This document shows, piece after piece, positions 32,662 to 64,000 of a stretch of 64,000 bases of DNA. Made by a program: the position numbers and the translations under genes. Origin of the DNA: an uncultured Gammaproteobacteria bacterium (GTDB lineage Bacteria > Patescibacteriota > Microgenomatia > Curtissbacterales > GWA2-41-24). Numbering within the stretch: the stretch's first letter is position 1; each line of letters begins with the position of its first letter. A model generated the notes under the pieces. That model was given only the letters and a program-made list of their open reading frames with translations, was not told the DNA's origin and did not search any database. The stretch lies in assembly GCA_964492425.1 (NCBI GenBank), contig CAZBKB010000003.1, forward strand, positions 6,682 to 70,681. Direction: 5' to 3'.

Positions 32662-32744
32662 AACTTAAGCCTAAACCATTAAAACAAAAATATCAATAAA
32701 TCGCCGGCAAACAACTATAAGATAAATATTGTCTAAACTATAAG

Positions 32745-43470: not shown

Positions 43471-43776
43471 TTATTGTTCACCTCCTTTCGTTATCCATCA
43501 ATAATCGCCCCCCACACGTACGTTTACCCTGAGTAAATCGAGGGGTAGTTTCGAAAAAACCTGAAACATGATCGAAATGAGCACAACAGGATGGGCAGAA
43601 CATAATAATTTACTTCCTTTTGGGATAAAAGCGAGTCCTAATTCGCATCGGTAAATGTATAATTTACCGACAGTTTATGTCAACTGGAACAAAAAGGGCA
43701 AAATGGGGTCAAAAAAATACAAAGTATAGCCGCCCATTCTTACAATATCCTGTCCTAATAATCAATTCGTGAAAGT

Positions 43777-47800: not shown

Positions 47801-48338
47801 TGGATAAGTCCTGTGGATTGCTGGTATCACCGTTATCTCCAACAGCAAAATAAAGTTTTCCGTCCGGACCAAATCCCAAACTTCCACCTACATGAAATTG
47901 CAGTGAAGGCGAATTTGTCCTATAAATTTCAACAGCATTTATTCCAACATCCGCCGAAGCATCAAGCCTTACAATCTTGTTCAATAAGTCATTTTTGGAA
48001 GTATAGTAAAAATACGCATAGTGATTACTGCTAAAATCCGGATCAAAAGCTACCCCAATCAACCCTCTGTCTCCGGAAGCCTCTGCATTTAAATCAACAA
48101 ACGGCGTTTGAAGTAAACTACCATTTTTGTAAATTTTTACTTTTCCTGCCCTCTCAAGTACAAAAATTCTGGAATCCGGTGCAATCGCAAATCCAGTTGG
48201 TCCATCAAGCCCGCTTCCAATAACTTGTGTTGTCTGAAAATTTACAGGTGGAGCTGCATATGTAAACTGCCGGGCTGCAAGAAATATAACGATAAAAAGA
48301 AAAATAAACCCCACACACAAACTCAATATTTTTCTCAT
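44850..48338 (-). CDS. Large secreted protein: glucose/sorbosone dehydrogenase-like beta-propeller + PKD domain + five PA14 domains
   Basis: GSDH-like motifs (GLIGVAFDPDF, HVGGSLGFGPDGKLYFAVGDNGD, GKILRINSDGTVPVDNPF, YGFRNPWRLSFDP, NYGWP). PKD YLWDFGDGTQS. Five PA14-like repeats (..FSVRWTK..ADDGVRIYVDGNLIINKW..). Confidence 0.7.
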   Translation of the reverse strand: MRKILSLCVGFIFLFIVIFLAARQFTYAAPPVNFQTTQVIGSGLDGPTGFAIAPDSRIFVLERAGKVKIYKNGSLLQTPFVDLNAEASGDRGLIGVAFDPDFSSNHYAYFYYTSKNDLLNKIVRLDASADVGINAVEIYRTNSPSLQFHVGGSLGFGPDGKLYFAVGDNGDTSNPQDLSNPHGKILRINSDGTVPVDNPFYGQAGKYGAIWAYGFRNPWRLSFDPDSGRLYVGDVGDATWEEIDLVQKGGNYGWPIVEGPCVSSCPYIQPIYAYNHNGASRAVALGPVYQGNMFPAEYKGDLFFGDYAGGFIKRLNLDSSGNYVSVADFDLNAGSVVDFKVAQDGSLYYITYFPGRLYKITYSVSNQTPIANSSADVTTSDDAPLAVHFSSSGTYDPDGDSLTYLWDFGDGTQSILANPTKIFSLGSFTVQLTVSDGVNSAQSVPIIINVGVPPTISIGAPSDGAKYKAGDTIFWIASAVDGRGIDLPSSAVSTEILLHHQTHIHPFLGPIVGTSGSFTVPMTGEDSAESWFEIKVSARDYDNLVSSKSVSVYPVTSNFTLLTSPGGMQLFLDGTLIGTPKTVTGVVSFEREIKAPLIQVLGGKNYQFANWSDGGAISRRISTPAADTTYVANYLEMPPFKGEYFTNMTLYGVPKLTRQDTVVDFNWGSKSPAAGIGTDKFSVRWTKKQYFVAGKYKFTTTADDGVRIYVDGNLIINKWVNQPPTTYSADITLTAGEHDVKMEYFENTGGAVAKLFWEIIDEAPAPIPAAGVFLAQYFNNITLSGTSVVQQNEPAINFDWGDDGSPDPLIGADNFSARYVKNDNFEAGTYEFKVTADDGVRVYIDNVLILDKWIDQAATTYTVSKDITAGMHEVKVEYYEKTGGAVLQFGYLKTGSLPPPPPPTGDYQGYYWNAGNGSSPTIPTTAANLVRNDAEINFDWDGVSPDAAINADHFIARWKARKTFEAANYRFTMVSDDGIRVYLDNVMILDQWNDHAPTTYTVDKAVTAGEHDIEVEYYENSGGAVAKFSYAKIDTPPSGDFFVAEYFDNISLSGIAKIIRQELSINFNWGNGSPDPAIPNDHFSARFGKTETIEAGTYEFTVTADDGIRLFIDGQLVIDKWIDQPPTTYKVTKSMTAGLHVIKLEYYENGGGATIVYSSKKI

Positions 48339-48466
48339 TGAAATTTAAAAGAGGCAGGAACATTAAAACATCGCGATTATAGGTTATAAAACCTAATGTG
48401 TCAAACATTCTTTTAACAGAACCTTAAAGAAACTAAAGGACAATTAGTGTATCAATTATTTACAAA

Positions 48467-49492
48467 TTACAGGACATTTAAATCATGGATTCTATAGTAT
48501 TTTTCAAGAATGGATTGGGCTTTTTTCTCCCCCAAATCACTAAAAATTGCACTCTCACCGCCAAAACCAACCCACCAATTTACCCCAACAATACTTTCCT
48601 GTTCAGATATCAAAGAGAGTACCCGCTCAATCCATCTTGACTGTTCTTCTTCATCCATCTCTCCATGAATGTGAAGGATTGGAGCTCCGAGTTCTCCAAG
48701 TATGATCTGTGCTTTGGTCGAATTTTTAAGTTCAACGATTTGGTCCACAAAATCCTCCGGCTTTCTAGTATAATGGTCAACAACAATTAAATTGTCCATT
48801 TCAGAAAGTGTTTTTTTATCAAATACTAACTTTGCCACATCCAAATTCATGGAAGTGTAATTTGTATTTACCTTTTTGCCGGTCTTTGCAAATTCCTCAT
48901 CCATCACTCGCCTCTCGCTGGTCATAAAAGTGCGAAAACCATCAATATCAGTATTATATCTTGGGTCACCCGGTCCACCGTTCTCACATTCCGGGCATGC
49001 TGTAAAAATGTCTCCATCTTCAAATAAATCAGCATTACTGCCAATAAACTGTTTTAATTTCTCAATATGCCCATCACGATTTAAATTCTTTTCGTAACCG
49101 AACCAACCTTCCCAGGACGAAAAGTTTCCTCGAAACCATACTTTCAAATTATATTGTCTGGCAAAGTTCACCCATCGTTTTAAATAAGGGACAAATTCCT
49201 GATCGTATGGGGTATCCACTGCAACATGGGTAGCACCAGTTTTAGAAATCAGTCCCATCTGCCTGTTTATTTCTAAATCAAAAGATTGTTCTTTGAACTT
49301 TATCCTCGCCTTGTCCCTGGAATCCTTCATCGTATCTATCGATTTAACCCGCCAAACACGCCCCGAGACAGGAAATTCCAATTGCTCACTATCTTTTTTA
49401 CCGGTAGCGTTAAAAAGAGATGAAAAAATTATTAATGCCCCAAAGACCAATATTGCAGAAATAACAATCTTCTTAATATTTACTAGATTCAC
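48467..49492 (-). CDS. Membrane-anchored putative TIM-barrel glycoside hydrolase-like protein
   Basis: N-terminal TM. Composition and length resemble GH5/GH113-like barrels, but no firm motif. Confidence 0.35.
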   Translation of the reverse strand: MNLVNIKKIVISAILVFGALIIFSSLFNATGKKDSEQLEFPVSGRVWRVKSIDTMKDSRDKARIKFKEQSFDLEINRQMGLISKTGATHVAVDTPYDQEFVPYLKRWVNFARQYNLKVWFRGNFSSWEGWFGYEKNLNRDGHIEKLKQFIGSNADLFEDGDIFTACPECENGGPGDPRYNTDIDGFRTFMTSERRVMDEEFAKTGKKVNTNYTSMNLDVAKLVFDKKTLSEMDNLIVVDHYTRKPEDFVDQIVELKNSTKAQIILGELGAPILHIHGEMDEEEQSRWIERVLSLISEQESIVGVNWWVGFGGESAIFSDLGEKKAQSILEKYYRIHDLNVL

Positions 49493-51192
49493 AGTTTCTT
49501 GTATATTTTTAGATTCCCCTCACTATAAACAACCTCAAAATTATTGTATAGCAGTTCTTTATTTTCCAAAAGTTCACCTAAAGCATCACCCGAAAGATTC
49601 TCATCAAGAACCACCCAGGTTGCATGTCGGGTTGGATCTGTTAGTGAATTCCTCCACCACTTTCTACTCCCTTCGTATATAAAATTGTTATAGGAAAGTT
49701 TAGTTTGAAACATGAAATTTTCGTGCCTATGAGCACTTACTAAAATTAAACCTCCGTCATAATTCTCGCGAAACCACTTTGAATACTCAAATTCAAGATA
49801 CTCGGCCTTTTTAGGAAGAGAAAAAGTCAATAAAAATGGTGTTGCAAATAATGTATAAAGCTGGAATATAATTAGCCCAAACACAATTCCGGTTAATAAT
49901 TTATTCCTGCCGTAAACGAGCCCAATCATAACTGCCATAAGTGGTAATGTAATTATTCCATAGCGAATATTAGAACTTGACCCAAAATTTAAATTCTTAT
50001 TCAAAATATTGGCAAAAGTTACCATTGGTGTTTCGATTTTCGGGATTAACCCTTTCGAATATCCCACAATTAAGAAACCGAATACGCAAAAGGTCATTAT
50101 AAAAATCGGGGTTAATAAAACATCTAATTTTCGCCTAACAACGTTTAGCAAATTTAGAGCACATAAGTACAAGAAGGCAATTGCAGCCAGAAGACTGATA
50201 ATAATACCATTTATAAAAAGCATAGCTGTGGAATAAATTTTTAAAGCATCGAATAATTTTATATTCCTATCAGGTTCAGAAACTGCCCCGACACCCTCTA
50301 CTGTAACCACTGGATCTACGGCAATGACCAGCTTTTTACCTGTATATAAATTTAACCAGTATATCGGATCCTTAAAAATTAAAAATGAATAAAATGACCA
50401 CAATAAAATACCAAAAACAGCCAAAGTTACAAAGAAAATAACTACACCCTGTATTTTCTGTTTGTTTTTAAGTGAATAAATTGCAGCCGAAACTGCCCCA
50501 ACACTCAATGTGGCAGCACCAAATAGTGCATAACCCTCATAACGGGTCAATGTTGTTAAAATTACAAACACTGCAGCATACAACAGATGCAAAATATTTT
50601 TGGTCTTTGCCCATTTGGTTAAAAAGTAAACAATCATGACCAGTGTGAAAAGGAAAAAAGATTCACTCATAGCCATAGTTTGCAAAAAAAGTATATTAAT
50701 ATTTGTGACATACACAAACCAGGCTAAAATTCCGCCAAACCTGTTTTTCGTGATTATATAAACAGTCTTGTAGAGAAACACCGCACTTATAATAAATGCA
50801 ATCATTGAAGGAATTGCCCCAGCCAGCCCGCTATGCCATAAGAATTTATTCCAAATAAATGGCAAAAATAATACCTGCGGAAATGGAAGCCAAATACCTC
50901 CAAGCTGAGCAAAGCCAGGTGTTAATGAATCAATAATTTTTCTTGCAATATTTAGACGTGCAATTGCATCATAATCTGCCAGATTCTTATTCCCCGAAAA
51001 ATAAAACACCAAAAAAGAAATAATGCTTATAAAAATTGTTGCCAGAATAAGCCAAAAATCAAACTTATTGTAAAAAAAATCCTTTTTAAAACCGTTTTTT
51101 TGCCTCTCTTTTCTCTCACCAATAATCGAATTCGCACTGGCAAGTGCTCCATGATTCGGCAATCTTGGTGCAATCACTTTATTCCCTTTCAA
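49489..51192 (-). CDS. GT-C superfamily glycosyltransferase (PMT/ArnT-like, GT39/83-type), about 12 TM
   Basis: Multi-TM architecture with a periplasmic loop. The 4-nt overlaps with the GT2 gene upstream and the TIM-barrel protein gene downstream suggest an operon. Confidence 0.5.
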   Translation of the reverse strand: MKGNKVIAPRLPNHGALASANSIIGERKERQKNGFKKDFFYNKFDFWLILATIFISIISFLVFYFSGNKNLADYDAIARLNIARKIIDSLTPGFAQLGGIWLPFPQVLFLPFIWNKFLWHSGLAGAIPSMIAFIISAVFLYKTVYIITKNRFGGILAWFVYVTNINILFLQTMAMSESFFLFTLVMIVYFLTKWAKTKNILHLLYAAVFVILTTLTRYEGYALFGAATLSVGAVSAAIYSLKNKQKIQGVVIFFVTLAVFGILLWSFYSFLIFKDPIYWLNLYTGKKLVIAVDPVVTVEGVGAVSEPDRNIKLFDALKIYSTAMLFINGIIISLLAAIAFLYLCALNLLNVVRRKLDVLLTPIFIMTFCVFGFLIVGYSKGLIPKIETPMVTFANILNKNLNFGSSSNIRYGIITLPLMAVMIGLVYGRNKLLTGIVFGLIIFQLYTLFATPFLLTFSLPKKAEYLEFEYSKWFRENYDGGLILVSAHRHENFMFQTKLSYNNFIYEGSRKWWRNSLTDPTRHATWVVLDENLSGDALGELLENKELLYNNFEVVYSEGNLKIYKKL

Positions 51193-52084
51193 AAATGGTT
51201 AAATTTTGAGAGTTAGTCCTGAGGTTAAAGGTTACATACCGAGAAAAATTTACCGCAAATTCCAAAACCGCAAGTATAGTAAATATTGGCGACTTAAAAA
51301 AACTCAAAAAAAGCTGCTTTAAAAGTAAAATCCTGGGAAACCTGTATTCAATGTCAATATATTGCTTGTCGAAATATTGAGACAAGGCTGATTTTCCAAG
51401 ATAAAATTTGTCGCTATGTGCTTGCCGATCCTCAGTCGTACTAATATTCTTTGCTAACACCCTGGCGTCGTTTGCCTTCACCATCAGGAATCCAAGTTCT
51501 TTTAGCCTTAAATAGCAGTAGCAATCTTCAGGTACATCAGATGGAAAAAATAATTTTCTAGAAAAGCTGCGTGCAATCGCTCTCATTGTATGGCCGCTGC
51601 AATTGTATAAATTATCACCTCCGCGAAATTTTTCGAACGCGTTTTGCTTTATTTCATTTTCAGTCCGAAAAACTTTCTCAAAGAACGTTCTTGGAGTTTC
51701 CATAATATCCCTTCCAACCACCATACCGATTCTAGAGTTGTCACAGTCATGATACGGTTTAACCAGTTTTGCAAGCGTCCAACAGTCATATGGTACAGTA
51801 TCAGCTTCCACTATAACCAAAATATCCCCCTTAAATTTTGCAATCATTTGATTCTGTCTTGCCTGCTGACTCATTCTTTGTCCGTCATCATAAAACTTTA
51901 CCCTTCTATCCTTTATACTTTTAACTATTTGTGCAGTTAAATCAGTGCTCCCGTCAGAAATTATCAAAACCTCACTAAGTTTGAAACCAACCTCCTTTTG
52001 CGAAAGTATCAGCCGAACGAGCTTTCCAATATTTTTTTCTTCGTTGTAGGCAGGAATTCCGACCGTTACTTGTAAATTTTTCAT
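51179..52084 (-). CDS. Family 2 glycosyltransferase (polyprenyl-phosphate sugar transferase-like)
   Basis: VGIPAYNEEKNI...ISDGSTD motifs. Confidence 0.75.
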   Translation of the reverse strand: MKNLQVTVGIPAYNEEKNIGKLVRLILSQKEVGFKLSEVLIISDGSTDLTAQIVKSIKDRRVKFYDDGQRMSQQARQNQMIAKFKGDILVIVEADTVPYDCWTLAKLVKPYHDCDNSRIGMVVGRDIMETPRTFFEKVFRTENEIKQNAFEKFRGGDNLYNCSGHTMRAIARSFSRKLFFPSDVPEDCYCYLRLKELGFLMVKANDARVLAKNISTTEDRQAHSDKFYLGKSALSQYFDKQYIDIEYRFPRILLLKQLFLSFFKSPIFTILAVLEFAVNFSRYVTFNLRTNSQNLTIFERE

Positions 52085-53163
52085 ATTGATATTTTTGTAA
52101 ACTTGGCAAATTTCAGGGTGTTTTTTATGATTGAGCTTATCTCTTTACCTTTTAATCTTGGGTAAAGCGGCAAGCTTACACACCTTGCACCTATAAATTC
52201 TGTATTTCTTAAAGAACCTCGAAAGTATTTCTTGTAACCTTTCATTTTGTGAAGAGGCAAATAGTGAATCCCCAGATGAATTCCTGCTTTTCTCATAGAA
52301 ATCAGGAACCGGTCCCTGTTTTCAACAAGTATCGGGTACAGATGGTTGCCAGTGTTCTTAAAACCAAAAGCCTTGTTGTACTTATTAACTATTTCATTTC
52401 TTTTATTGTTAAACTTCTCAACCTTTAGAAGCTGCTTCCGCCCAATGGCTGCCTCAACATCTGTCATATCAAAGTTCCAGGAAGGAAAATCTACCTCCCA
52501 ATAAAATCCGGATGGGTCATCAACTTTTTCCCTGCCTCGGTAACGCGCCAGTGTATCTTTGGTTAACCCTCCATGGCACGCTTTTTGGTAAAAGTTCCAA
52601 TCTTTTTTACTGTTTGTCGCAATCATACCACCACGAACAGTCGTCATATTCTTGACAGCATAAAACGAATAACAGCTCACATTGCCACGAAAGTCATTCT
52701 TTTCAATTCTATGTGCACTATCATAAATAACCGGAACACTAAAACTGCTAAAACCGGTAGCATATCGTGCAGCAAAGTGTACAGGAATGATAGCTTTGGT
52801 TTTTTTAGTAATCTTACGCTTGACATCTGCCGGATCCAGACACCAATCGGACAACTTTACATCCGCAAAAACCGGCACACCGCCTGCATGTATCACCACA
52901 GCAGCTGTTGCAGTCCAGGTTAAAGAAGGCACAATCACTTCATCACCAGACTTTAAATTCAACTTGGAAAGTGCCAGGTAAAGCGCCATAGTACAACCGT
53001 TTGTAGCAACTGCATATTTTGAACCGATAAATTTGGCGAACTCTTGCTCCAGGGCAACACAATGCTGACCGCGAATGAGCCATTCCGACTTCAAAACCGC
53101 AACTGCTGCGTTTATCTCATCCCGGCCAATATTAGGTCTTGATAAATTGATAGACTTTCTCAT
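52081..53163 (-). CDS. DegT/DnrJ/EryC1/StrS family PLP-dependent sugar aminotransferase
   Basis: GDEVIVPSLTWTATAAVV, pyridoxal-Lys region SFYAVKNMT. Confidence 0.8.
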   Translation of the reverse strand: MRKSINLSRPNIGRDEINAAVAVLKSEWLIRGQHCVALEQEFAKFIGSKYAVATNGCTMALYLALSKLNLKSGDEVIVPSLTWTATAAVVIHAGGVPVFADVKLSDWCLDPADVKRKITKKTKAIIPVHFAARYATGFSSFSVPVIYDSAHRIEKNDFRGNVSCYSFYAVKNMTTVRGGMIATNSKKDWNFYQKACHGGLTKDTLARYRGREKVDDPSGFYWEVDFPSWNFDMTDVEAAIGRKQLLKVEKFNNKRNEIVNKYNKAFGFKNTGNHLYPILVENRDRFLISMRKAGIHLGIHYLPLHKMKGYKKYFRGSLRNTEFIGARCVSLPLYPRLKGKEISSIIKNTLKFAKFTKISI

Positions 53164-54161
53164 AAAACCAGCCTCTCGATCATCACCCTTTTTCTGTAAT
53201 TGGGTCTGTTTATATGATTTCTAAGGTATTTAACACGAAAATACTCATCGTCACCTAGATCTTGTATCTCTCCATTCTCAAAAGACTTATAAAGCTCTGA
53301 AATTGCATCTTTTATTGTGAAGCGGCACTTAAACTTTAATTCACTCTTAATCCTGGAAAAATCAACAAGATAACTTCTTTTATCAACATTGTCATAAAGT
53401 TGTACAAACTCAACCTTTGGTAAATATTCGGCAATTTTTACGCCCAGCTGAGAAATTTTAAAATTCTGGTCGTTCGAACCGACATTAAAAACCCTATGTT
53501 TTGGACTTTTAATATGAAGAGCAAGATAAATTGCGCTTGCAACATCCCTGACATGAACAACCGGTCTCCATTGTTCCCCACCGTTTACAACTATTTTCTT
53601 TTCAAAAAAACTGTTTCCTATCATTGTATTAACCACTAAATCAAATCGTGGCTTTTTTGAATACCCATAAACTGTTGCAAGCCTCAAAATTATGCCATTT
53701 ACGTCAGAATCTAAATAAAATTTCTCAGACAGCATCTTTGTTCTTGCATATAAAGAAACAGGATTAGGTTTGTCCAGCTCATTAAAGATTCCTCTGCTGC
53801 TAAAGCCATAAACGGAACAAGATGAAGCATAAACTACCCTTTTGTCTGTTGACCTGCACAAATTGGCAATTGTCTCGTTCGCCCGATAATTTATTTCCCA
53901 GGTTAATGAAGGCGCAAGGTCAGAAGCAGGATCGTTAGATATCGCCGCCAAATTTACGATTGCTTCATGGCAGTCAATGGCCGGTAACAAATCATTGATA
54001 TTAGTAACATCAGCATGAATAAAATTACATCCGGCGTCAATTTTTGTACCTTTCTCATATAAAAGGTTGTCATAAACAGTAACCTCATCACCCCGAGATT
54101 TTAGATATTCACACAAAACAGAACCAATAAAGCCAGCCCCGCCTAAAATTAAAACCTTCAT
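53160..54161 (-). CDS. NAD-dependent epimerase/dehydratase (extended SDR)
   Basis: MKVLILGGAGFIGSVLCEYL Rossmann motif. 333 aa. Confidence 0.8.
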   Translation of the reverse strand: MKVLILGGAGFIGSVLCEYLKSRGDEVTVYDNLLYEKGTKIDAGCNFIHADVTNINDLLPAIDCHEAIVNLAAISNDPASDLAPSLTWEINYRANETIANLCRSTDKRVVYASSCSVYGFSSRGIFNELDKPNPVSLYARTKMLSEKFYLDSDVNGIILRLATVYGYSKKPRFDLVVNTMIGNSFFEKKIVVNGGEQWRPVVHVRDVASAIYLALHIKSPKHRVFNVGSNDQNFKISQLGVKIAEYLPKVEFVQLYDNVDKRSYLVDFSRIKSELKFKCRFTIKDAISELYKSFENGEIQDLGDDEYFRVKYLRNHINRPNYRKRVMIERLVL

Positions 54162-55285
54162 AATCTCTGCCTTTCGCGTTTATCCAGATCAACAACCTCA
54201 CGGCAAAAGTTGGCATAATCTCGCGAGATATTATTCCAACCATATTTTCTGGCAAAAGGCCTGGCAGATTTAGATAATTTCAGCCGAAGCTTAGAATTAG
54301 TCGAAATTTCAATCAATTTTTGAGATAGTTCATCAACCCTGAATGGTCTCGCCTTTAGCGAAACATCATCCGTAACCCACTTCATACCGGCAACATCAAA
54401 GCAAACAACCGGTTTTGAAAAACTCGTATATTCCAGAGGAACCAGTGGAAAATCTTCAAAACGTGAAGGATACACACCAAACTTTGCACCGCGAAGTAGC
54501 AGCTCTTTCTTTTTCCCATCAGCCCTCCCGACAAATCTGACTTTACCTTCAAGTTTTTTCTTTTTTATAAGACCGACAAGTCTTTTTTCCTCATCTTTTG
54601 GTCCATTTCCTGCAATTACAAGCTTTGTCGAAACCTTCCCATTTATCCTTGCGAATGCTTCAAGTAACAAGTCCAAACCTTTTTGTACAATATCAATCCT
54701 GCCGATAAAAAGTGCATAGTTCCCATCTTTTACTTTTTTTGTAAATGCTTCCTCGCCAATACCGTTCGGAATAAGCCGAAAATGAATTTTCGGATTCATT
54801 TTCAACATTTTTTTCTGGTTTATAGGTGAATATGCAAGAAAATATTTATAGAATCTAACACCCAATTTTTCAACTAAATGAAACGGCAAATGATACTTCT
54901 TGGAAAATTCACCGGCTTCGAACATTGTAGGCATCCCGATTACAGGAATCTTGGTATAAAGCGGCGAAAAACAAGTTGAAATCGGGGCAGTAAAACACTC
55001 AATAATAACGTCTGCCTTAAATTTCCAAAGTGCAAGAGGAAGAGCCACAAAGAAAGCTGCATTGTTAAACCGTATATTAGCACTCCCCAAACCTATGTGC
55101 TTATAAAAAATCCCATAATACTTTTGGTCCTTGGATTTCGGGTACCTTGAACAAATTATCGTTACCTTATGACCCATTTTGACCAGACGCCTGCTCACCT
55201 CAAAAGTTGCCCTTGCCTGGCCACCAGACAAAAAAGGATTTTTAATATCATCAAAATCAACAAATGTTATGTGTAACTTCTTCAT
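54158..55285 (-). CDS. Family 4 (GT-B) glycosyltransferase
   Basis: GT4 C-terminal domain with an E-x7-E-like FEDFPLVPLE. Confidence 0.7.
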   Translation of the reverse strand: MKKLHITFVDFDDIKNPFLSGGQARATFEVSRRLVKMGHKVTIICSRYPKSKDQKYYGIFYKHIGLGSANIRFNNAAFFVALPLALWKFKADVIIECFTAPISTCFSPLYTKIPVIGMPTMFEAGEFSKKYHLPFHLVEKLGVRFYKYFLAYSPINQKKMLKMNPKIHFRLIPNGIGEEAFTKKVKDGNYALFIGRIDIVQKGLDLLLEAFARINGKVSTKLVIAGNGPKDEEKRLVGLIKKKKLEGKVRFVGRADGKKKELLLRGAKFGVYPSRFEDFPLVPLEYTSFSKPVVCFDVAGMKWVTDDVSLKARPFRVDELSQKLIEISTNSKLRLKLSKSARPFARKYGWNNISRDYANFCREVVDLDKRERQRL

Positions 55286-58200
55286 ATTTTCTCCCCACCC
55301 AAAGCCACGTTCTCAGTAAATTTCGGACTTTTAGCTGAATTCACTTCCCTAAGTATTAGATTGTAAAAAGCAGTGGAACTACGCTCCCATGAAAATTGGG
55401 ATGCCCACAAAGTACCCTGACGCTCTAACCTTTTTCTAAGTTCTTCATTGGATATTAAGCTTAAAATTGAACTTGAAAATGAATCTACGTTTCCCCACTC
55501 AACCAGAAATCCGTTATAGTTGTGGACAACTGAATCACGAAGACCAGCAACGCTGGAAGCGATAACAGCCGTGGAGCAAGAACTTGCTTCCACTACCGAG
55601 ATTCCCCACCCCTCTAGCATTGATGGTTGTACAAATATCCAAGATTCTGAAAGTAATTTCCACTTCAGCTCGTCATCAACCCGACCCATGAACTCCACCG
55701 AACTTACGAGTCCTAATTTTTCGACTAATCGTTTCAGAAAATCTTCACTCTCCCCTTCTCCAGCAATGATTAGTCTAGCCTTAGGATAAACAGATGCAAT
55801 TTTTATCATCGAATAAATCAATGTATCAATAGATTTATACGGTTTTAATCTACCCATGTATAAAAGTTGCGGGTATTGGGTCTTTGCATATTTATTGACG
55901 TTTACATTGTCAACTCCAGGATTAATTACTTCTATACTGTTTACAAAGCCAAGTTTTTCCAAGTCAACTTTCGAAGAATTAGACACAGTCACAAGCTTCT
56001 TATTCCTGTACGCAACAGGCATCAAAAACCCTTCTAAAACCTGTGCAATTTTATTAAACGGAAACGCAAGCTGTGTTCTAAAAACTTCTTGATGCACGTG
56101 ATGTACCAGTACAATGATCGGCAAATTTGAATACAGAGGTGTAAAAAACGGGATTCCGTTTTCGCAGTCAATCACCAGATCAAATTTTTTCCTAAATCTG
56201 AAAATGTAATAAAGAAATGCCCATATATACACTGTATAAAAACCGCCACGTCTGATAATATTTACACCATCAATTTTTTCAAACCTCAAATTATGGCCAT
56301 CATTACCGCAAAATATAGTAACCTGATGGCCCTGTTTTACTAAATTTTTTGCAATCTCATGGGCATATATCTCTGCTCCTCCTGCCCATTTGTGCTTTAA
56401 GTCTCGCCAGTTCATAATTAAAATTCTCAAGTTTGGATAAATTAATGCTTTTTTATTCTTATTAGGCGCAAACAGTAATACCAAATCCTCTAAATTCCTA
56501 CTAACAACCCGCACCCTCTCTTCAAATATGTGCATTAACAGCAAGACCACGAAACCCGATATGCTTACAATAAACATTCCGTTCACTATCTGACTAATAT
56601 TGGAATGGAAAATGGAAATCATAAAAATTTCGAAGAGTGCCAATGCTAATCCAACCGCAGGAAATAAATTTAGTTTTCTTGTCTGATGAAAAAGCATCAG
56701 AGAGGTTGATATAGTAAAAAGCAAAATCGCAAACCCAAATAGCGGCAAAAACTGCGCAATCACATGTGCCTTATCACCAAATAATATTGGCGCACTTATA
56801 TGCCCAAAAAGACCAATTGCAATATATGCCCCACAGGCACCGATTGACGAAAGTGCGAAAATTTTATTAAATGTGCTCTTACTCTTTTGGCCCTCTCCTT
56901 CTTCTTTAGAAACTATTGGAGTAATAAATTGCGAAAAAAGGGAACCTATAAAGAAAATCGACTTGGCGGCAATAGAAAGTAATGCGTACCTCCCGGCTTC
57001 TTCATTTGGTAAATAATGCTTCGCTAAGATTAAATCCAAGCTTATAAATGCAACGATCCAAAACTTCGTCAAGATCGAAGTAATAAAAAACTTAGATGGG
57101 AATAAAAGATGGTCTTCAATTCTCTTATGTTTTGCCTTACCAAGCCTCGAAGCATAAATCCAACCTGCGCAAAATGCGATTACCAGTGAGATTGGAATCG
57201 CCACATAAACAAATCTTCCAAATCCCATTTCAACCAAGAACCAGGTAAACATTAACCTAGAAATAGCCTCAACGACTAAAAGGATCCCGACTGCCTGGTA
57301 CTTATGACTTCCAAAAATAAAACCTTCATCGACAGCTGCAACTGCACCAACGAGCCAAACCGGCGAAAACAGAATAAACGGCAAAATAGAATTTTCTCTA
57401 AAATAGACACTAAAAAACGGTGACAAAATGATCCATACAAGTGCAACCCCGCAGCTCAACAGGAAAACTTTCTTTCTTGTTTGCCTCCAAAATTCAGATA
57501 TCACTTCCTTGTGCTTGCCCAGGAAAAAAGCGGTCTTGTGGGTAACAGTTCTTGAAAGTGATACGAAAAGTATTGTTGTTAAAAATGTAAAACTGCCGAT
57601 TAGAGAAATAAGTGCGTAACTTTCCAAAGAAACAGCTCTTGTTAAATATGCGTTGTAAATGAAATTCAAAAAGTTGGCAAATACTGTCGAAATCACCAAA
57701 AATGAACCGGAACCTGCCAGATAACCGGATATTTTTGGGAGTCCAGGAATATTATTCTTTAGCCTCGGTAAACTTAAAAAACTATATACCCCTTCAAATT
57801 GAGACCCAAATACTGCCTTAATATTTTGCCAAATAGATAATGTGCCGGATAGTTCGGTTTGTTTGATATTCAAACCGTGCTGTGTCTTTTCCCAAAAATG
57901 AGGCTTAAAGATTAACTGGTGCAACCCAACGAGAGCCGCAACACTCCCTAATAACCAGTACAAAGGAATTAAAAATACATATTTTACAAGAGACCACTGT
58001 TCACGTTTAGCACAACCGATCATGAAGAAATACATGTACATAAAGTTCCCAAAAACAAGGGAAATTATTGCCATATAAAAAACAGGTGCCGGATAAAGCT
58101 TATTTACGGTTTCCCCCATAATCGAAAAGAGCGGAAAATACAGTAGTGTTACTAACCACAAAATTGGGTTAATAAACATAAATGCAATTTTTCCACCCAA

Positions 58201-59994
58201 AAGAAGCTGGAATACAAATGCATGTAATCCATATTCTCTATAAAATTTCAGCGGGTTTCTCGTATGTACAAGATAGGTTTGCATGTAACCCTTAAGCCAG
58301 CGGGAACGCTGCCTGATCCAATTGCCAACCCTGCTATTTGCCTCTTCATACGTAGTAGAGTCAATAACAGCCGTTTTGTAACCTGCTTTGAAAAGCCTTA
58401 CGCCAAGGTCTGCATCCTCGGTAACATTAAAGGGGTCCCATCCTTCTAATTTTTTAAGTTCGTCAACCGGAAAATGGTTACTGGTTCCTCCAAGAGGAAT
58501 ATTGGTTTTAATGGATTGCAAACCCATAAGTACAACGTCAAACCAGAGGGAATATTCTGCTGTAAAAAGCCTGGTCAAAATGTTTTGATGGGCGTTGTGG
58601 TAGTTTAATTTCGCTTGAAGACACATCACATCCCGTGGTACTTTTGAGAAAGCTATGTACGCCTTTTTCAGCTGTTTTGGGTCCGGTACGTCCTCGGCAT
58701 CATAGACAACCAAAAGCTCTCCCCTCGCATGCCATAATCCCCAGTTACAAGCCTTGGGTTTTGTCTTTGGAAGAGAATCGGGAACAACAAGTGTACTTAC
58801 ATAAGATGGCAAATTACCCGCTTCGCACAACTCAATACTCTCACGGTCATCTTCCTCAAGAAGCAATATTGTATCCAGCTTGTCTTTTGGCCAATCCAGT
58901 TTATCAATTGCTCCTAAAAAATTAGGTAAAATTTCAGCCTCTTTATACAAAGGACAAAGTATTGTATATATTGGCAAATCAGATTCAACCAAAGCATCAA
59001 TTTCCTCATCAGTTACACTAATGGCAGACTCATGATGAAGGCTTCTTAAAATAAGAAAGAAGTTAAAAATTACATCAACAAAGTAAACAACGCTTAAAAC
59101 CCCAACGAATATTCCAAGTGTAAAAAGTACATTTTTGAAAAGACCATAAGACACCACACCAAACAAGAAAAATACAAATAATTTTTGCCAGGCAACAAAA
59201 TTTTCAAGAGCGCTTATATCGGATTTTAATATTGTATGTGTTATATATCTCTTTCCACCATACGCGACTCCCGCACCAATGTTTGTATCGCTCGCTTTGG
59301 GTTTAAAATAAACAGGTTCAATTCTTCTAAGCTTTAACAGCAGTGCATTTAGAAACAGTTCAACTGAGACTTTGCCAACATTAAGTTTAGATTTTCCAGC
59401 ATTTCTTTTTTTAAATTCAATATCATGGCTGCCGATAGTAAAACCGGCTTCTTTTGCCCTTTTCAAAAATTCAAGGTCAAATGTCCAAGCGCTTTTAGCC
59501 CTATAAGAGATAGTTTCTATCACCTCGCGCCTAAAAACCTTCAAACCGGATTGTACGTCGGCATTAATATCAAAAAATAGATTGGAAAATACGTTTTTAA
59601 AAGTTTTACTTAAAAAGGTTCTTAATTTACCGGTTTTATTTACTTTTCTGTTTGCAACAACAATATCGTAATCTTTTAATCTTTTTAACATTTCATAAAT
59701 CTCCCCGGGGTCATATTGTAAATCTGAGTCCAGAATTGCCAATATATCATATTTTGCGCTCAAAAATCCCTGAATTAGCGAATAAGCCTTACCCTTTTTG
59801 CCAGTTTTCCGAAATACGCGAATAGGGTGTAAACTTGAAAGCTCATTTAAAAACTCAAATGTACCATCCTCTGATTTATCATCAACAAAAATAATTTCAA
59901 ATTCCAAATAAGGTAATAAGGCCTCCTCAAGCCGCAAAATAAGAGGTTCAACGTTTTCCCTTTCGTTATATGTCGGAACAATGACACTAAGCAT
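55282..59994 (-). CDS. 1570-aa fusion protein: GT2 (Dpm1-like) + processive CESA-like GT2 (QxxRW) + multi-TM transporter/flippase-like region + GT4
   Basis: N-terminal VIVPTYNERENV. QRSRW motif. About 20 predicted TM helices in the middle. C-terminal EGWGISVVEA GT4 motif. One continuous ORF. Confidence 0.65.
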   Translation of the reverse strand: MLSVIVPTYNERENVEPLILRLEEALLPYLEFEIIFVDDKSEDGTFEFLNELSSLHPIRVFRKTGKKGKAYSLIQGFLSAKYDILAILDSDLQYDPGEIYEMLKRLKDYDIVVANRKVNKTGKLRTFLSKTFKNVFSNLFFDINADVQSGLKVFRREVIETISYRAKSAWTFDLEFLKRAKEAGFTIGSHDIEFKKRNAGKSKLNVGKVSVELFLNALLLKLRRIEPVYFKPKASDTNIGAGVAYGGKRYITHTILKSDISALENFVAWQKLFVFFLFGVVSYGLFKNVLFTLGIFVGVLSVVYFVDVIFNFFLILRSLHHESAISVTDEEIDALVESDLPIYTILCPLYKEAEILPNFLGAIDKLDWPKDKLDTILLLEEDDRESIELCEAGNLPSYVSTLVVPDSLPKTKPKACNWGLWHARGELLVVYDAEDVPDPKQLKKAYIAFSKVPRDVMCLQAKLNYHNAHQNILTRLFTAEYSLWFDVVLMGLQSIKTNIPLGGTSNHFPVDELKKLEGWDPFNVTEDADLGVRLFKAGYKTAVIDSTTYEEANSRVGNWIRQRSRWLKGYMQTYLVHTRNPLKFYREYGLHAFVFQLLLGGKIAFMFINPILWLVTLLYFPLFSIMGETVNKLYPAPVFYMAIISLVFGNFMYMYFFMIGCAKREQWSLVKYVFLIPLYWLLGSVAALVGLHQLIFKPHFWEKTQHGLNIKQTELSGTLSIWQNIKAVFGSQFEGVYSFLSLPRLKNNIPGLPKISGYLAGSGSFLVISTVFANFLNFIYNAYLTRAVSLESYALISLIGSFTFLTTILFVSLSRTVTHKTAFFLGKHKEVISEFWRQTRKKVFLLSCGVALVWIILSPFFSVYFRENSILPFILFSPVWLVGAVAAVDEGFIFGSHKYQAVGILLVVEAISRLMFTWFLVEMGFGRFVYVAIPISLVIAFCAGWIYASRLGKAKHKRIEDHLLFPSKFFITSILTKFWIVAFISLDLILAKHYLPNEEAGRYALLSIAAKSIFFIGSLFSQFITPIVSKEEGEGQKSKSTFNKIFALSSIGACGAYIAIGLFGHISAPILFGDKAHVIAQFLPLFGFAILLFTISTSLMLFHQTRKLNLFPAVGLALALFEIFMISIFHSNISQIVNGMFIVSISGFVVLLLMHIFEERVRVVSRNLEDLVLLFAPNKNKKALIYPNLRILIMNWRDLKHKWAGGAEIYAHEIAKNLVKQGHQVTIFCGNDGHNLRFEKIDGVNIIRRGGFYTVYIWAFLYYIFRFRKKFDLVIDCENGIPFFTPLYSNLPIIVLVHHVHQEVFRTQLAFPFNKIAQVLEGFLMPVAYRNKKLVTVSNSSKVDLEKLGFVNSIEVINPGVDNVNVNKYAKTQYPQLLYMGRLKPYKSIDTLIYSMIKIASVYPKARLIIAGEGESEDFLKRLVEKLGLVSSVEFMGRVDDELKWKLLSESWIFVQPSMLEGWGISVVEASSCSTAVIASSVAGLRDSVVHNYNGFLVEWGNVDSFSSSILSLISNEELRKRLERQGTLWASQFSWERSSTAFYNLILREVNSAKSPKFTENVALGGEKI

Positions 59995-60135: not shown

Positions 60136-62322
60136 TCAAGCTTTTTGAAGATCTGTTTTCCTGCGGAGAACAAAAGTTGCAAGCCCAAGAATAGCAAATG
60201 CAATTGCCATTCTAAGATAAATAGGCATACCAAAATCAAACGGGTCTCTTTCCGCCCTATATGTGGTTATAGATTGGACTTGGGTATCTGGCCCCTCACC
60301 TTCAACTGACCCGCCGCCAGCTTTTGAGAAGAAATTTTGATTTAAAATAGCAGCAACTTGAGCCGATAATCCTGAATCTCCTCCAGATGTTGAAAAACCA
60401 TCATCCGAAGAATTCGAAGAAGAATTTGAGCTAATCGCGCTGTTTGTTTGGGAACTTGAATTTCCTACATTTACTCCCCCGACTGCAGGAATTTGACCTG
60501 TAAATCCTGCCGGCACGAAATTACCAATCCAGGATCCAAATACGTTTACCAATGTCATCACAACTTTGCGGCCTGAGAAATTTGAGTTAATAAAGTTGAT
60601 CACATTCACTACAATATTAGCATCACCTGTTGTGATACTTGAATTTCCACCTGTATTCTTGCTTGCATCATTTCCACCAGTATTGGCATCGATATTAATA
60701 TTGTTAGTAATTGTCCCGTTATTATTTATATTTGTGTAATTTGTATTTGTATTGTTAATCTCTGAACTGTTAACAGAATCTGTCCCGTTATTTTGGTTCA
60801 TAGCAACCAACTGACCATTTTGATCTACAAAGAAAATTGAACCATCCGATGTATAGAAATAAGTGCCTGGTGCCGCCCCTAAAATCTGTCCCTGCCAATC
60901 TCCCGAAATGTCGTTTATGAATACAAAATAGATAGGTTCGCAGCTTCCGGCCGTTACGTTTACGTTGGCAATGTTGACAACGTTTGCATCAACATTGACA
61001 TCCCCCGTACTTATAGTGCTGAAACCTCCTGTATTGCCACTTGTACTGTTACCACCTGTACTTGCGTCTAGGTTAAGGTTATTTTCAACTGTGGTCTTAT
61101 TGGTTACATTGGACGTATCTGTGTTTGTGCTGTTAACTGTCGCGTTGTTTGTCGAATCGCTCCCGTTGCCTATATTGGTTGCTGTCATATCTTGGCTACA
61201 TTCACAGGAACAATCAGACGTGGGTCCTGTAATACCTGGCTGGACAATGTTTCCGACCATATCACCGAAGATGTTAACAACATTCATAGCACCATCTACA
61301 ACAGTATTTAGTGCGTTTACTACATTGGCAACTACATTAGCATCACCTGTATCGATGGTAGAATCACCACCAGTGTTTTTACTTGTCTTGTTATAACCGG
61401 TATTGGCATCTATATCGATATTATTTACGATATCCCCATTGTTATTGACCGTCTCCACATTTGTATTTGTATTATTAATTGTCGAATCATTTGTAGAATC
61501 TGAACCATTCCCTATATTTTGTGCAGCCAATGTTGAGGAGTCCAAAAGTATATCCCCATTATAGTTTCCGTTAACATCAAACTGATAAACTCCAAGGCTT
61601 ACTTCATTAGCATCTGTAATCACCGTAACAACAACATTTGCATCGCCTGTTATGATCTCGCTGTCTCCAACATTGCCTGATGCGTCGTTGTAGCCGGAAT
61701 TAGCATCGAAATCCAAGTTATTGTCAATATTTGCATTATTGTTAATGACTACGGCTGTATTATTGTTATTGTTTGCAGTTGCTGTATTGTCCGATCCCGA
61801 TCCGTTTGCACTGTTTGTGACGGTCGTATCGCCGACACAGGCACTACAATCGCCATCCGTAGAAATTGCAGTATTATTGGCGCTGGTTGTCAAAACGCCG
61901 TTGGCATTGGCGTCGCCGGTATTAATAGAAGTGTCTCCGACATTTCCGCCACCGTCTATTCCTCCGGTAGAATCAGTAGCACCGGGGTTCTGGCTTGCAA
62001 GCCAGGCCTGGTATTCCTGCCATCGCCTTTCTTTCTCGTCATCACTAATGTAATAGTCGGTTTTACTATCCCCGTCACGGTCATCTGGATCAACCACACT
62101 TGGGCCATCCCAACTGCTAACAGGTGTAGGCAAAGGTGACGCTACTATAGTTGGATCCGGACTTGAAGCCGGGCTCGGTTCCGGACTTGGTGAAGGCCCA
62201 GACTCAGAATCTGACGGCGCGTCTAGGCCTGGATCATTCCCTGCCATTACCACCATGGTCGGGTTCAAAACCAAGCTCAAAGACAGGAATATGGATATTA
62301 ATGTTTTTTTCAGTTTAATCAT
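60136..62322 (-). CDS. Secreted 728-aa N/T/G/D-rich repeat protein with a C-terminal TM + RRK tail
   Basis: Signal peptide. PSPEPSP linker. Repeats of NTGG(D/N)S(T/S)I(D/T)TGDANVV.NV.N. Cys pairs (DCSACVGD, DCSCECSQD). C-terminal MAIAFAILGLATFVLRRK. Confidence 0.5.
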   Translation of the reverse strand: MIKLKKTLISIFLSLSLVLNPTMVVMAGNDPGLDAPSDSESGPSPSPEPSPASSPDPTIVASPLPTPVSSWDGPSVVDPDDRDGDSKTDYYISDDEKERRWQEYQAWLASQNPGATDSTGGIDGGGNVGDTSINTGDANANGVLTTSANNTAISTDGDCSACVGDTTVTNSANGSGSDNTATANNNNNTAVVINNNANIDNNLDFDANSGYNDASGNVGDSEIITGDANVVVTVITDANEVSLGVYQFDVNGNYNGDILLDSSTLAAQNIGNGSDSTNDSTINNTNTNVETVNNNGDIVNNIDIDANTGYNKTSKNTGGDSTIDTGDANVVANVVNALNTVVDGAMNVVNIFGDMVGNIVQPGITGPTSDCSCECSQDMTATNIGNGSDSTNNATVNSTNTDTSNVTNKTTVENNLNLDASTGGNSTSGNTGGFSTISTGDVNVDANVVNIANVNVTAGSCEPIYFVFINDISGDWQGQILGAAPGTYFYTSDGSIFFVDQNGQLVAMNQNNGTDSVNSSEINNTNTNYTNINNNGTITNNINIDANTGGNDASKNTGGNSSITTGDANIVVNVINFINSNFSGRKVVMTLVNVFGSWIGNFVPAGFTGQIPAVGGVNVGNSSSQTNSAISSNSSSNSSDDGFSTSGGDSGLSAQVAAILNQNFFSKAGGGSVEGEGPDTQVQSITTYRAERDPFDFGMPIYLRMAIAFAILGLATFVLRRKTDLQKA

Positions 62323-62525
62323 TTTTTGTTTACTACTCTAAGCCTAAAAGGGCAAAGTCGCTATCTTTTATATTATTTATATTCTTCAAAATTTTCTTTT
62401 TCGTTAAATGTTACTGTTTATTGTTAACTGTTAACTTTTTCCATCTATTCTTGGAGGCTACCCTTCAGCTTACCTAGGTGGTTCAACCTAATCAGGTAAA
62501 CCTCCAAGAATTCAGGAATTCTGCT

Positions 62526-63794
62526 TTAAGCAATTAATGCCAAAAGCAATAAGAGAACAGACATAGAACCACCCATTTCCGGAAGGTCAAAATCTACATC
62601 TCCAAGTACGTTAGAGTTTGCAGTGTTCTCTACTTCTACGTCTGCGTCTGCATCACCAGTGGTAACCGATGGATCACCACCATGGGTGTTGTCATTGACA
62701 TCGTTTTTACCGGTGTCCAAATCAACATCCACTTCGTTGCAGTCATTCTTGTGACCACGCCAGAACCATTCCTGGTATCCGCCTTTGCCACAATCATAAT
62801 CGTTTGTTTGGGTAATATACTTAACAGATGTCAAGTATGCCTTAACAGTATTGTCACTGTCAGAACCGTTACCCTTTACTAGAACGTCTAGGTCTTCAAG
62901 ACAACCACAACCTTCTAGCTCTGCTGCATTGAAGTTAGCCATATTACTGACATTAACGTCTGCATTTGCATCACCTGTGTCGATTGAAACATCGCCACCT
63001 GTGTTGTCATTTGCATCGTTTTTACCTGTATCGGCGTCTACGTCGACATCGTTAGAAATGTCAGCATAATTGGATTGGTTGATAGTGTTATTAGAAGTCA
63101 AATTAACTTTGACTGTATTGTCGCTATCAGAACCGTTTCCAGAAATTTCGACAGCTACTCCACCGCCGTTTCCGCCGGTAATAGCCGCCCAGTTTGCGTT
63201 TGCTTGGTTACTTACAGTAACGGTCGCATCTGCATCACCAGTTTCAACGGAAACATCACCACCCGTATTACCGTTTGCGTCGTTCTTGCCGGTGTCTAGA
63301 TCAACATCGACATCGTTATCGAACTCAGCATTGTTCGTCTGGGTGATGGAATTTGTGTTGTTAGACGTGAACTTTATTTTGTTCTCATCATTGTTTCCAT
63401 TGTCTGTTCCGTTACCCTTAATGGTTAAGGTAACGTCATCTGGACAACATCCGTCAACGCTAGCCTGGTTTGAATTAGCAGTGTTTGTAACACTTACTGT
63501 CGCATCAGCATCACCTGTGTCGATAGAAACATCGCCACCTGTGTTGTCGTTTGCGTCATTGTTACCAGTGTCAGCGTCTACATCTATGTTGTTGGAGATG
63601 TTAGCTGTATTGGTTTGGTTAACGGTAGTTGTGTTTGTTTGGTTAACTTCAACAGTGTTGTCGCTATCCGAACCGTTTCCAGAAATTTCAACTGTTGTTG
63701 CCGCAAGAGGCATAGCAAATGAGGAAACTACCAAAGCAGCTGTAGAAGCAGCAGTTGCAAGTTTTATTGCAATTTTGTTCATATTATTTTTCAC
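62526..63794 (-). CDS. Secreted 422-aa N/T/G/D-rich repeat protein with a C-terminal LPEMGG + hydrophobic tail
   Basis: Signal peptide. Four repeats of NGSDSDNTV.VN.TN...N.DVD.DTGKNDANDNTGGDVS(I/V)(D/E)TGDA(D/N)A.V.V(S/T)N. Cys pairs (DGCCPDD, EGCGCLED). C-terminal DLPEMGGSMSVLLLLLALIA. Confidence 0.5.
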   Translation of the reverse strand: MKNNMNKIAIKLATAASTAALVVSSFAMPLAATTVEISGNGSDSDNTVEVNQTNTTTVNQTNTANISNNIDVDADTGNNDANDNTGGDVSIDTGDADATVSVTNTANSNQASVDGCCPDDVTLTIKGNGTDNGNNDENKIKFTSNNTNSITQTNNAEFDNDVDVDLDTGKNDANGNTGGDVSVETGDADATVTVSNQANANWAAITGGNGGGVAVEISGNGSDSDNTVKVNLTSNNTINQSNYADISNDVDVDADTGKNDANDNTGGDVSIDTGDANADVNVSNMANFNAAELEGCGCLEDLDVLVKGNGSDSDNTVKAYLTSVKYITQTNDYDCGKGGYQEWFWRGHKNDCNEVDVDLDTGKNDVNDNTHGGDPSVTTGDADADVEVENTANSNVLGDVDFDLPEMGGSMSVLLLLLALIA

Positions 63795-64000
63795 CTCCTT
63801 TCATCCTTTGAAGCTTTAGCGAAAGAGGACTTCCTTGCTAAACTTCTTTAATTCCGTTAACTCTCCTCCAACACCTTATGCGAAAGAGAAAACGAAAACG
63901 GAGGCTCATCACCTAGACAATATTATCTAAGTAACGAACCTCCGTTTGCGGTCGGCTCTGTCGTCCGTAGCCTTAGCAAAGGACGACCGTTATTCAATTT

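Follow-up and report, generated by a model that had tools for sequence, protein, structure and literature searches.

What are the proteins built from long, Asn-, Thr-, Gly- and Asp-rich repeats with intervening cysteine pairs that are encoded in a Microgenomates genome, and what might they form on the cell? This question is raised by a 64,000-nucleotide stretch (hereafter, the window) of contig CAZBKB010000003.1 (assembly GCA_964492425.1, positions 6,682 to 70,681 of the forward strand), deposited as an uncultured Gammaproteobacteria bacterium and placed by GTDB in Patescibacteriota (Microgenomatia; Curtissbacterales). An earlier reading made without database searches (hereafter, the sequence-only reading) had noticed three such proteins, which we call A, B and C. 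We are almost certain that they belong to a real, secreted, undescribed repeat family that is found Microgenomates-wide in a conserved operon. Because this lineage-wide family lies in an operon with membrane- and wall-anchored versions, it is probably a major cell-surface structure. Specifically, we favor (probability of about 55%) an abundant, envelope-anchored, disulfide-stapled, beta-solenoid-like assembly, in which A would be the main subunit, B and a fourth class, D, the anchors, and the basic C an adaptor or cap.

Repeat register, cysteine pattern and export signals

The minus strand carries genes A, B and C, with open reading frames (ORFs) present where the sequence-only reading had placed them, and these ORFs, the Sec-type signals and the matches to a repeat profile agree with its claim of three secreted repeat proteins (Table 1). 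The start of A was revised: it had been extended to 63794, but the GTG at that position lies inside the Shine-Dalgarno (SD) sequence GAAAGGAGGTGAA of the gene. Based on the SD position and the orthologues, which begin MNK, the start was placed at ATG 63782; the identical database protein has 418 amino acids (aa).

For the repeat, a hidden Markov model (HMM) with 87 match positions was derived from 40 orthologues of A. It identified four copies in A (E 1e-28 to 3e-37), four full copies (E 5e-14 to 3e-16) and one half copy (E 1e-5) in B, and two copies in C (E 1e-18 and 2e-16), with no copies outside these genes in the six-frame translation of the window. The period is 87–92 aa in A and C and 100–125 aa in B, rather than the 70–75 aa proposed earlier. 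It is longer in B due to a conserved insert of 20–45 aa after each repeat (e.g., VVNIFGD.GDI, VVNVFGSW.GDFV). A conserved repeat register was apparent both from the HMM and from the alignment of the 40 orthologues, in which GNG anchors at residues 39, 127, 219 and 309 of A give a period of 88–92 aa and 68 columns are invariant, nearly all of them N, G, Q, T or A. The conserved turns of the module are GNGxxSxN (positions 6–13), TGxN (43–46), NTGG (51–54), TGDA (60–63) and NxN (74–76); between them, conserved V/A/N/Q positions alternate with variable polar positions. The conserved N/Q/T/G columns are present in every repeat, and the NTGG..TGDA and DVD.DTGKNDAN blocks were found just as the sequence-only reading had described them. 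The last repeat of A is specialised, with a Cys-bracketed 16-aa insert (C335 and C352, conserved; at HMM positions 33/34 in 135 of 187 orthologues) and an invariant Pro (P375) in NTHGGDPS.

All of the Cys segments reported earlier (DGCCPDD, EGCGCLED, DCSACVGD, DCSCECSQD and NCCICVTG) are present. They had been thought to separate consecutive repeat sets, which is true of A after repeats 1 and 3 (R1 and R3) but not after repeat 2 (R2): among 187 orthologues of A, a Cys pair follows R1 in 187, R3 in 186 and R2 in none, and the R2/R3 junction is Gly-rich and lacks Cys. In D, the pair follows R1 in 37 of 38 proteins and R3 in 34 of 38, never R2, and in C it follows R1 in 138 of 139. This pattern, with two Cys pairs per protein at alternate junctions, suggests that two disulfides form between the R1 and R3 junctions, which would meet across an R2 junction free of side chains. 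Proteins with a single CxC, as is the case for many of the C type, would need a disulfide partner elsewhere. In about half of the C-type proteins, repeat 1 contains an additional Cys (position 21 or 23). Disulfide-forming machinery (MdbA-like, VKOR) has been reported as enriched in the Candidate Phyla Radiation (CPR; PMC6744442); none is encoded within the window.

Signal peptides were read from the sequence. They end in PLAA/TT in A, VVMA/GN in B and AAFA/DT in C; that of A has a basic n-region, a hydrophobic core and an A-x-A site, and the mature protein opens directly with repeat 1. The tail of A is neither a transmembrane (TM) anchor nor a sortase signal, with an 18-aa hydrophobic stretch in only 4 of 77 orthologues and a basic residue in the last 15 aa in only 5 of 77. 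No sortase sorting signal was found in A (ending ..LPEMGGSMSVLLLLLALIA, no basic tail), B (TM helix plus RRK, no motif) or C (no tail). Roughly half of the residues of A are N, D, T or G. The calculated pI values show mature A and B to be very acidic (≤4.05) and C to be near neutral (7.85). The repeats of A have a net charge of −5 to −7 in the tip third. In the whole family, only repeat 2 of C is basic (+3 in the tip, +2.5 in the stem; n = 142), with Lys at positions 38, 40, 42, 45, 47, 49 and 50, whereas A has Asp at 38, 40, 42, 47 and 50.

Distribution, conserved operon and expression signals

Database searches for the repeat returned abundant homologues: a profile of the ten window repeats matched 3024 clusters at 50% identity, 2020 of them at E ≤1e-10. 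Among the 150 best matches listed, most are ~400–440 aa with four repeats or ~700–800 aa with five. By protein, there are >766 homologues of A (~410–430 aa), 511 of B and 151 of C. In one-genome-per-species contigs, 176 loci contain a relative of A, and the named records are overwhelmingly from Microgenomates phyla (Curtiss-, Gottesman-, Woese-, Chisholm-, Davies-, Levy- and Amesbacteria); we read the ‘Gammaproteobacteria’ titles among them as mislabelled assembly records, not as real taxonomy. Across candidate phyla, A keeps its length (410–430 aa), its four repeats and 45–60% identity. The named database homologues of A, B and C are all annotated as ‘hypothetical protein’.

Searches for known relatives were negative, in agreement with the sequence-only reading, which had not recognised a described family. 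Pfam and NCBIfam scans of A, B and C gave no match at E ≤1, single-sequence (phmmer) and profile searches of PDB sequences gave noise only (E > 0.5), and tblastn of A against phage and plasmid collections found no match. No description of the repeat family was found in literature searches. A 2019 survey lists 35 mostly hypothetical families enriched in Microgenomates, where sortase is near-ubiquitous (PMC6744442), and the Patescibacteria candidates of a published S-layer survey are unrelated Parcubacteria proteins of ~1100–1260 aa only.

Membership in specific families was rejected as well. For RTX (HemolysinCabind, PF00353) there is no Pfam match at E ≤1 and zero occurrences of GG.G.D in A, B and C, and the N-terminal Sec-type signal peptides differ from the C-terminal signal of type I secretion; the Ca-binding beta-roll geometry raised by the sequence-only reading therefore found no support (no GGxGxD, no HemolysinCabind match, Sec signals present). 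No run of four or more G-X-Y triplets, as in collagen-like proteins, occurs in A, B or C. The curli repeat (Curlin_rpt; Sx5QxGxGNxAx3Q, ~22 aa) has no Pfam match, and hhalign of the repeat profile against E. coli CsgA gave a probability of 0.1%. Chaplins (PF03777) have no Pfam match, only their paralogue/anchor architecture being analogous, and neither SLH nor another recognised S-layer domain was found by Pfam or NCBIfam.

The usual gene order is DUF4352-like membrane protein, A, B, D, sortase, C. The single-pass DUF4352-like protein, which may be an assembly factor of the system, is encoded within three genes upstream of A in 72 of 77 loci. B directly follows A in 67 of 77, with a C-terminal TM helix and basic tail in 59 of these 67 B proteins. 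In no fewer than 30 loci, B is followed by class D (~385 aa, three repeats); 20 or more of these 30 D proteins have an LP[AVIL]TG sorting signal (LPATG/LPVTG) consisting of motif, hydrophobic stretch and basic tail, and the sortase gene lies directly 3' of D in 26 of 30 loci. Class C (~200 aa) follows the sortase, often on the opposite strand. The sublineage of the window lacks class D, and in its closest relative (locus L001, 79% identity to A) the order A-B-C-CAP is contiguous, with C directly after B. A CAP/SCP-domain membrane protein (41716..42735, minus strand) also follows C here, as it does in L001, L003, L012, L013 and L019, which suggests that it belongs to the conserved neighbourhood of A, B and C. 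Upstream of the window, the same contig encodes an LAATG protein, a sortase, two small proteins and a DUF4352-like protein; the last of these (L081 9021..9704, weak DUF4352 match) is just beyond the window end.

The translation signals of A and C stand out among the 48 genes of the window. Only these two have an 11-nt perfect SD (AAAGGAGGTGA), followed by rplL with 8 nt, and an SD is absent in 27 of the 48, B among them; the ribosome-binding context that had been described as common to two genes is therefore that of A and C, and not of B. In the sequence as presented, TTCACCTCCTTTC is the reverse complement of the SD GAAAGGAGGTGAA. Either GGAGGTGA or GGGGGTGA precedes the A orthologues displayed, with the exact GGAGG pattern in 40 of 77. 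The long structured 5' untranslated regions (UTRs) proposed for two genes were confirmed for A, whose 218 upstream nt fold far better than shuffles (z = −7.1), but not for C, whose upstream region is not structured above shuffles (z = +1.2).

The leader of A contains a conserved hairpin. The window contains a single exact ACGGAGG-N20-45-CCTCCGT pattern; in 41 of 81 loci there is likewise one, upstream of A. The element is also found in L001, L003, L005 and others. Of the 22 base pairs in the leader alignment, 12 show compensatory changes; no variation occurs in the lower stem (AAACGGAGG/CCUCCGUUU), the upper stem covaries, and the 5' flank is conserved and unpaired. A sigma-70-like promoter (TTGACA-N17-TAnnnT) is located 20–60 nt upstream of the leader box in at least 10 loci, so that the hairpin falls within the 5' UTR of A. 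When metagenomes were scanned for the leader 15-mer, 14 of 120 matches had the full hairpin and 13 of the 13 testable ones precede an A-like gene, whereas 98 chance matches had neither hairpin nor A-like gene. Rfam searches of the window and the A leader gave only tRNAs and spurious miRNA-hairpin matches, with no family for the leader. The 5' arm of the hairpin is a near copy of the SD; the element could be an attenuator, an mRNA stabiliser or a decoy competing with the real SD.

Table 1 Features of genes A, B and C and of the A leader (window coordinates).
Feature	Position	Strand	Description
Gene A	62526..63782	-	418 aa; signal peptide, four ~88-aa repeats, acidic/hydrophobic C-terminal tail
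Signal peptide of A	63699..63782	-	MNKIAIKLATAASTAALVVSSFAMPLAA then TT; conserved across the A orthologue alignment
A repeat 1	63438..63695	-	Residues 34–119 (422-aa numbering); HMM E 2.7e-35; CC pair at end, nt 63444..63449
A repeat 2	63165..63419	-	HMM E 1.2e-28; followed by Gly-rich junction without Cys
A repeat 3	62901..63155	-	HMM E 3e-37; CGC pair at end, nt 62901..62909
A repeat 4	62598..62888	-	HMM E 3.5e-32; specialised last repeat
C-terminal tail of A	62529..62597	-	..DVDFDLPEMGGSMSVLLLLLALIA; invariant Pro, then short hydrophobic or amphipathic end
SD of A	63790..63802	-	GAAAGGAGGTGAA; 11-nt perfect match to AAAGGAGGTGA
Leader hairpin of A	63898..63945	-	ACGGAGG..CCUCCGU, then U-run
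Conserved unpaired 5' flank of hairpin	about 63946..63955	-	GACCGCAAAC
Gene B	60136..62322	-	728-aa paralogue; signal peptide, Pro/Ser-rich linker, half repeat, four repeats plus inserts
B half repeat	61843..61971	-	Repeat HMM
B full repeats	61573..61824, 61273..61527, 60934..61185, 60553..60807	-	Repeat HMM; conserved insert after each
C-terminal part of B	about 60166..60228	-	TM helix plus RRK; preceded by Ser-rich linker
Gene C	42874..43470	-	198-aa paralogue; two repeats, the second Lys-rich, CCIC after repeat 1, no tail
Signal peptide of C	43387..43470	-	Read from sequence
C repeats	43126..43380 and 42877..43110	-	Repeat HMM
SD of C	43477..43489	-	Same SD as A

Predicted structure and a proposed envelope assembly

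AlphaFold2 models of A and C, made with family alignments, are all-beta (A: pLDDT 73.6, pTM 0.67; C: pLDDT 70.6, pTM 0.46). Each repeat is predicted to contain a short strand and a very long strand (18–32 residues; up to 30–32 in A), as well as two short ones around NTGG and one that reaches ~19 residues at most. Foldseek searches of the two models against PDB gave no match at E ≤1e-3. FapC was the top match for both (E 9e-3 and 5.7e-2, probability ≤0.25, TM ≤0.23), and all of the weak matches are parallel beta-solenoids or amyloids (SufD, pectate lyases, tapirins, Ag43/TibA, SRRP, ice-binding proteins and CsgA).

Using direct-coupling analysis (DCA) on 1388 distinct repeats, we found that the strongest signal is an antiparallel ladder (i+j ~104) of more than a dozen pairs between positions 23–41 and 63–80. 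Further couplings connect position 48 with 56/58, the two sides of a 2–15 hairpin, and the GNG loop (positions 7–11) with the NTGG tip (50–52); an inter-repeat origin of the 2–15 coupling was rejected, this being an intra-repeat coupling. The ladder is limited to conserved odd positions (mean 0.4–1.0 vs. −0.04 for background) and is missing from variable even positions. This shows face-to-face packing of a module's two long strands, as in a beta-arch or sandwich, and not an in-plane hairpin. The extra Cys of C-type proteins (21/23) faces the junction Cys (82/83) in the register of the ladder, a second check that agrees with face-to-face packing. DCA on repeat pairs gave very strong (i,i') couplings between equal positions of neighbouring repeats, which we did not count as proof of stacking because concerted evolution would also produce them. 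That the modules stack in register to form a flattened solenoid, each module being one rung, is a reasonable inference. Where the sequence-only reading had suggested a beta-solenoid or beta-roll, a solenoid-like fold fits the AlphaFold strands, the weak fold matches, the coevolution and the gene context, and the beta-roll of the RTX kind does not; its ‘fibre’ remains an inference.

We propose that A, B and C are paralogues exported by Sec. In each module, two long strands (~23–41 and ~63–80) would pack via the conserved V/A/N/Q face, with the turns (GNGxxSxN, TGxN, NTGG, TGDA and NxN) closing the ends. Successive modules would stack in register into a flattened, Asn-ladder, beta-solenoid-like body, in which the Cys pairs at alternate module junctions would act as disulfide staples. 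A, which is free, very acidic and by its signals very strongly translated, would be the bulk subunit; B, presumably held in the membrane by its C-terminal TM helix, would be the anchor or base; and D (absent in this genome) would be linked to the wall by the neighbouring sortase. The small C, with a basic repeat 2 where A is acidic, may dock on A, where in-register docking would convert the Lys/Asp positions into salt bridges, or it may instead bind anionic wall polymers. Together, the four classes would form an abundant envelope-attached fibre, sheath or S-layer-like coat.

Several points weigh against such an assembly. The in-register stacking rests on DSSP strand lengths and non-significant fold matches, AlphaFold is known to predict solenoids too readily from repeats, concerted evolution confounds the inter-repeat couplings, and stacked Asp over Asp would need counter-ions. 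Repeat 4 of A, with its invariant Pro and Cys-loop insert, could together with the tail be a cap, in which case a finite complex or monomer would result rather than an open polymer. Moreover, class D and its linked sortase are missing from this genome, and C is 17 kb away from A and B in the window.

The main alternative is that A–D are independent monomeric adhesins or host-binding proteins of an episymbiont, i.e., self-contained beta-helices with no higher-order assembly, with B displayed by its TM helix, D displayed by sortase, and A and C released to bind host cells or polysaccharide. Secretion and anchoring of the proteins, the adhesins among the weak fold matches (Ag43, TibA, SRRP, tapirin), the resemblance of A repeat 4 to a cap, and the attachment to hosts attributed to CPR bacteria (PMC13293708) speak for this alternative. 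We nevertheless consider it unlikely, since adhesins usually vary fast and A keeps its length, repeat number and identity (410–430 aa, four, 45–60%) across candidate phyla; the two free classes, A and C, lack an anchor yet have the strongest SDs in the window; and the fixed class stoichiometry in one operon, along with the A/C charge complementarity, points to interaction between paralogues. A variant of the favored assembly, to which we assign a similarly low likelihood, is a two-dimensional S-layer lattice, with A tiling the surface and B and D as stalks or anchors. The acidity of A, its strong translation signals and its structured 5' leader are typical of S-layer genes. The coupling between GNG loop and NTGG tip, at opposite module ends, could be an inter-subunit lattice contact, and S-layers have been reported in some Patescibacteria (PMC13293708). 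However, this coupling may reflect subfamily signatures only, none of the known S-layer domains for anchoring or lattice formation, SLH included, was found by Pfam, conservation of S-layer proteins between phyla is normally poor, and the published survey names other, much larger Patescibacteria candidates.

Other explanations have far less in their favor. The Asp/Gly/Asn-rich composition, TGxND-like turns and very acidic pI recall Ca2+-binding, RTX-like beta-roll exoproteins, and RTX proteins are encoded near some orthologous loci; given the missing GGxGxD and HemolysinCabind matches (E ≤1), a period of 88 rather than 9 residues, and the Sec signals, family membership is refuted and the explanation as a whole is very improbable, although the proteins may still bind Ca2+. 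Binding of ice, minerals or another flat surface via regular Thr/Asn arrays on a flat solenoid face is just as improbable: several weak Foldseek matches are ice-binding beta-helices and the outward-facing positions are T/N/D-rich, but the matches are non-significant, these outward positions are the variable ones (entropy 3–3.6 bits), and the homologues come from many unrelated metagenome and metagenome-assembled genome (MAG) projects with no visible link to cold habitats. Finally, the biased composition (N+D+T+G about 50%) and long ORFs on the opposite strand could indicate a low-complexity artefact or unreal ORFs, an idea that is refuted by invariant N, G, Q and T columns across 40–190 orthologues, by conserved lengths, signal peptides, SD and leader, and by synteny in 77 loci.

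The envelope assembly could be extended to a broader proposal that we raise only tentatively, as it is more doubtful than not: a new bacterial surface polymer, made as a cross-beta or solenoid ribbon of 88-residue rungs with no outer-membrane secretion machine, started or held by B and D, capped by C, linked by inter-rung disulfides, set in its expression by the leader RNA, and serving as the main envelope structure of OP11/Microgenomates. To our knowledge, a rung of 88 residues is several times larger than those of known beta-solenoids or functional amyloids.

The uncultured Microgenomates (OP11) form a large section of the bacterial tree, and we know of nothing published on their cell-envelope proteins. 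The A/B/C family is a concrete candidate for their main surface structure because it is lineage-wide, is conserved in length and register, and has the strongest translation signals of the window, its own anchors and its own leader RNA. It would offer a handle (antibody, tag or proteomic marker) for imaging, enriching and typing Microgenomates cells, and it may represent a beta-solenoid or amyloid-like architecture whose rung is unusually large and whose disulfides follow a regular pattern. Defining the family, which has no Pfam, NCBIfam or PDB representative, would annotate thousands of ‘hypothetical proteins’.

Genomic surroundings and comparison with known systems

Compared to L001, a ~17-kb block (44850..59994, minus strand) is inserted between B and C. 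It encodes a 1570-aa GT2-GT2-GT4 fusion with a large membrane region, a further GT4, an epimerase/dehydratase, a DegT aminotransferase and a GT2, as well as two unknown membrane proteins, a 1162-aa secreted GSDH-PKD-4xPA14 protein and a sortase substrate. The glycosyltransferase/sugar cluster (51179..59994) adjoins B here and the neighbours in L001 differ; because this adjacency is not conserved, we did not use it as evidence of a glycosylation link. A 308-aa secreted Pro/Thr/Ser-rich protein (43777..44703, minus strand) has a sortase signal (QPDTG, hydrophobic stretch, RFRKGRK). One sortase gene is located at 35831..36514, and just upstream of the window there is a further sortase, together with an LAATG substrate (L081 6487..7832). 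A sortase link of A, B and C in this genome was rejected, as the local sortases are paired with other LPXTG/LAXTG proteins and A, B and C have no signal.

Genuine RTX (HemolysinCabind) proteins occur a few genes downstream of the operon in L004 (15121..16014), L034, L049 and L073; they are unrelated to the repeat family but might be mistaken for it. Elsewhere in the window, large secreted or membrane proteins without a family match (1195, 277 and 985 aa; 25038..34292, minus strand) lie beside an M23 peptidase and MreB, a further set of uncharacterised envelope genes. Three consecutive proteins (864, 489 and 512 aa; 9607..15230, plus strand) with only weak Trans_reg_C (winged-helix) matches split rplK-rplA from rplJ-rplL, an unusual insertion in a normally compact ribosomal cluster.

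Among known systems, the chaplins of Streptomyces (ChpA-H), which form a surface functional amyloid, resemble A–D in being secreted paralogues with differing numbers of one small beta domain, and they carry conserved Cys. They differ in having a ~40-aa hydrophobic domain instead of an 88-aa polar/acidic module, with no sequence relation, and in lacking the additional TM-anchored and basic classes found in A–D. Some chaplin paralogues are sortase-anchored to the wall and are thought to anchor the free, polymerising ones (PMC8300730). Curli (CsgA/CsgB) and Fap (FapC/FapB) share with A–D imperfect N/Q/G/A/S-rich repeats with fixed Asn/Gln positions and the combination of a major subunit with a surface-tethered paralogue. 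Their repeats are shorter (~22 aa in curli and ~35–40 aa in Fap, compared to 88 aa in A), and they need outer-membrane machinery (CsgG, FapF) that is absent in the monoderm-type lineage of A–D. The sheaths of Methanospirillum and Methanothrix consist of cross-beta proteins that form a disulfide-interlinked envelope polymer (PMC11576556), but they are from another domain of life and no sequence similarity to A–D was detected.

Class D is similar to Gram-positive sortase surface proteins and pili, with LPXTG, hydrophobic stretch, basic tail and a sortase gene after it; A has no LPXTG, therefore its polymerisation cannot be sortase-catalysed as in pili. RTX beta-rolls and Ca2+-bound beta-helices have in common with A the Gly/Asp/Asn-rich turns, the acidity and probably the parallel beta structure, whereas A–C have no nonapeptide, no Pfam match, a Sec signal and an 88-aa period. 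In their logic, the closest known systems are chaplins, curli/Fap and the methanogen sheaths, none of which is sequence-related. The repeat family and its module have no described relative, and the set of anchored and free paralogues of a beta-repeat surface protein is of a known kind.

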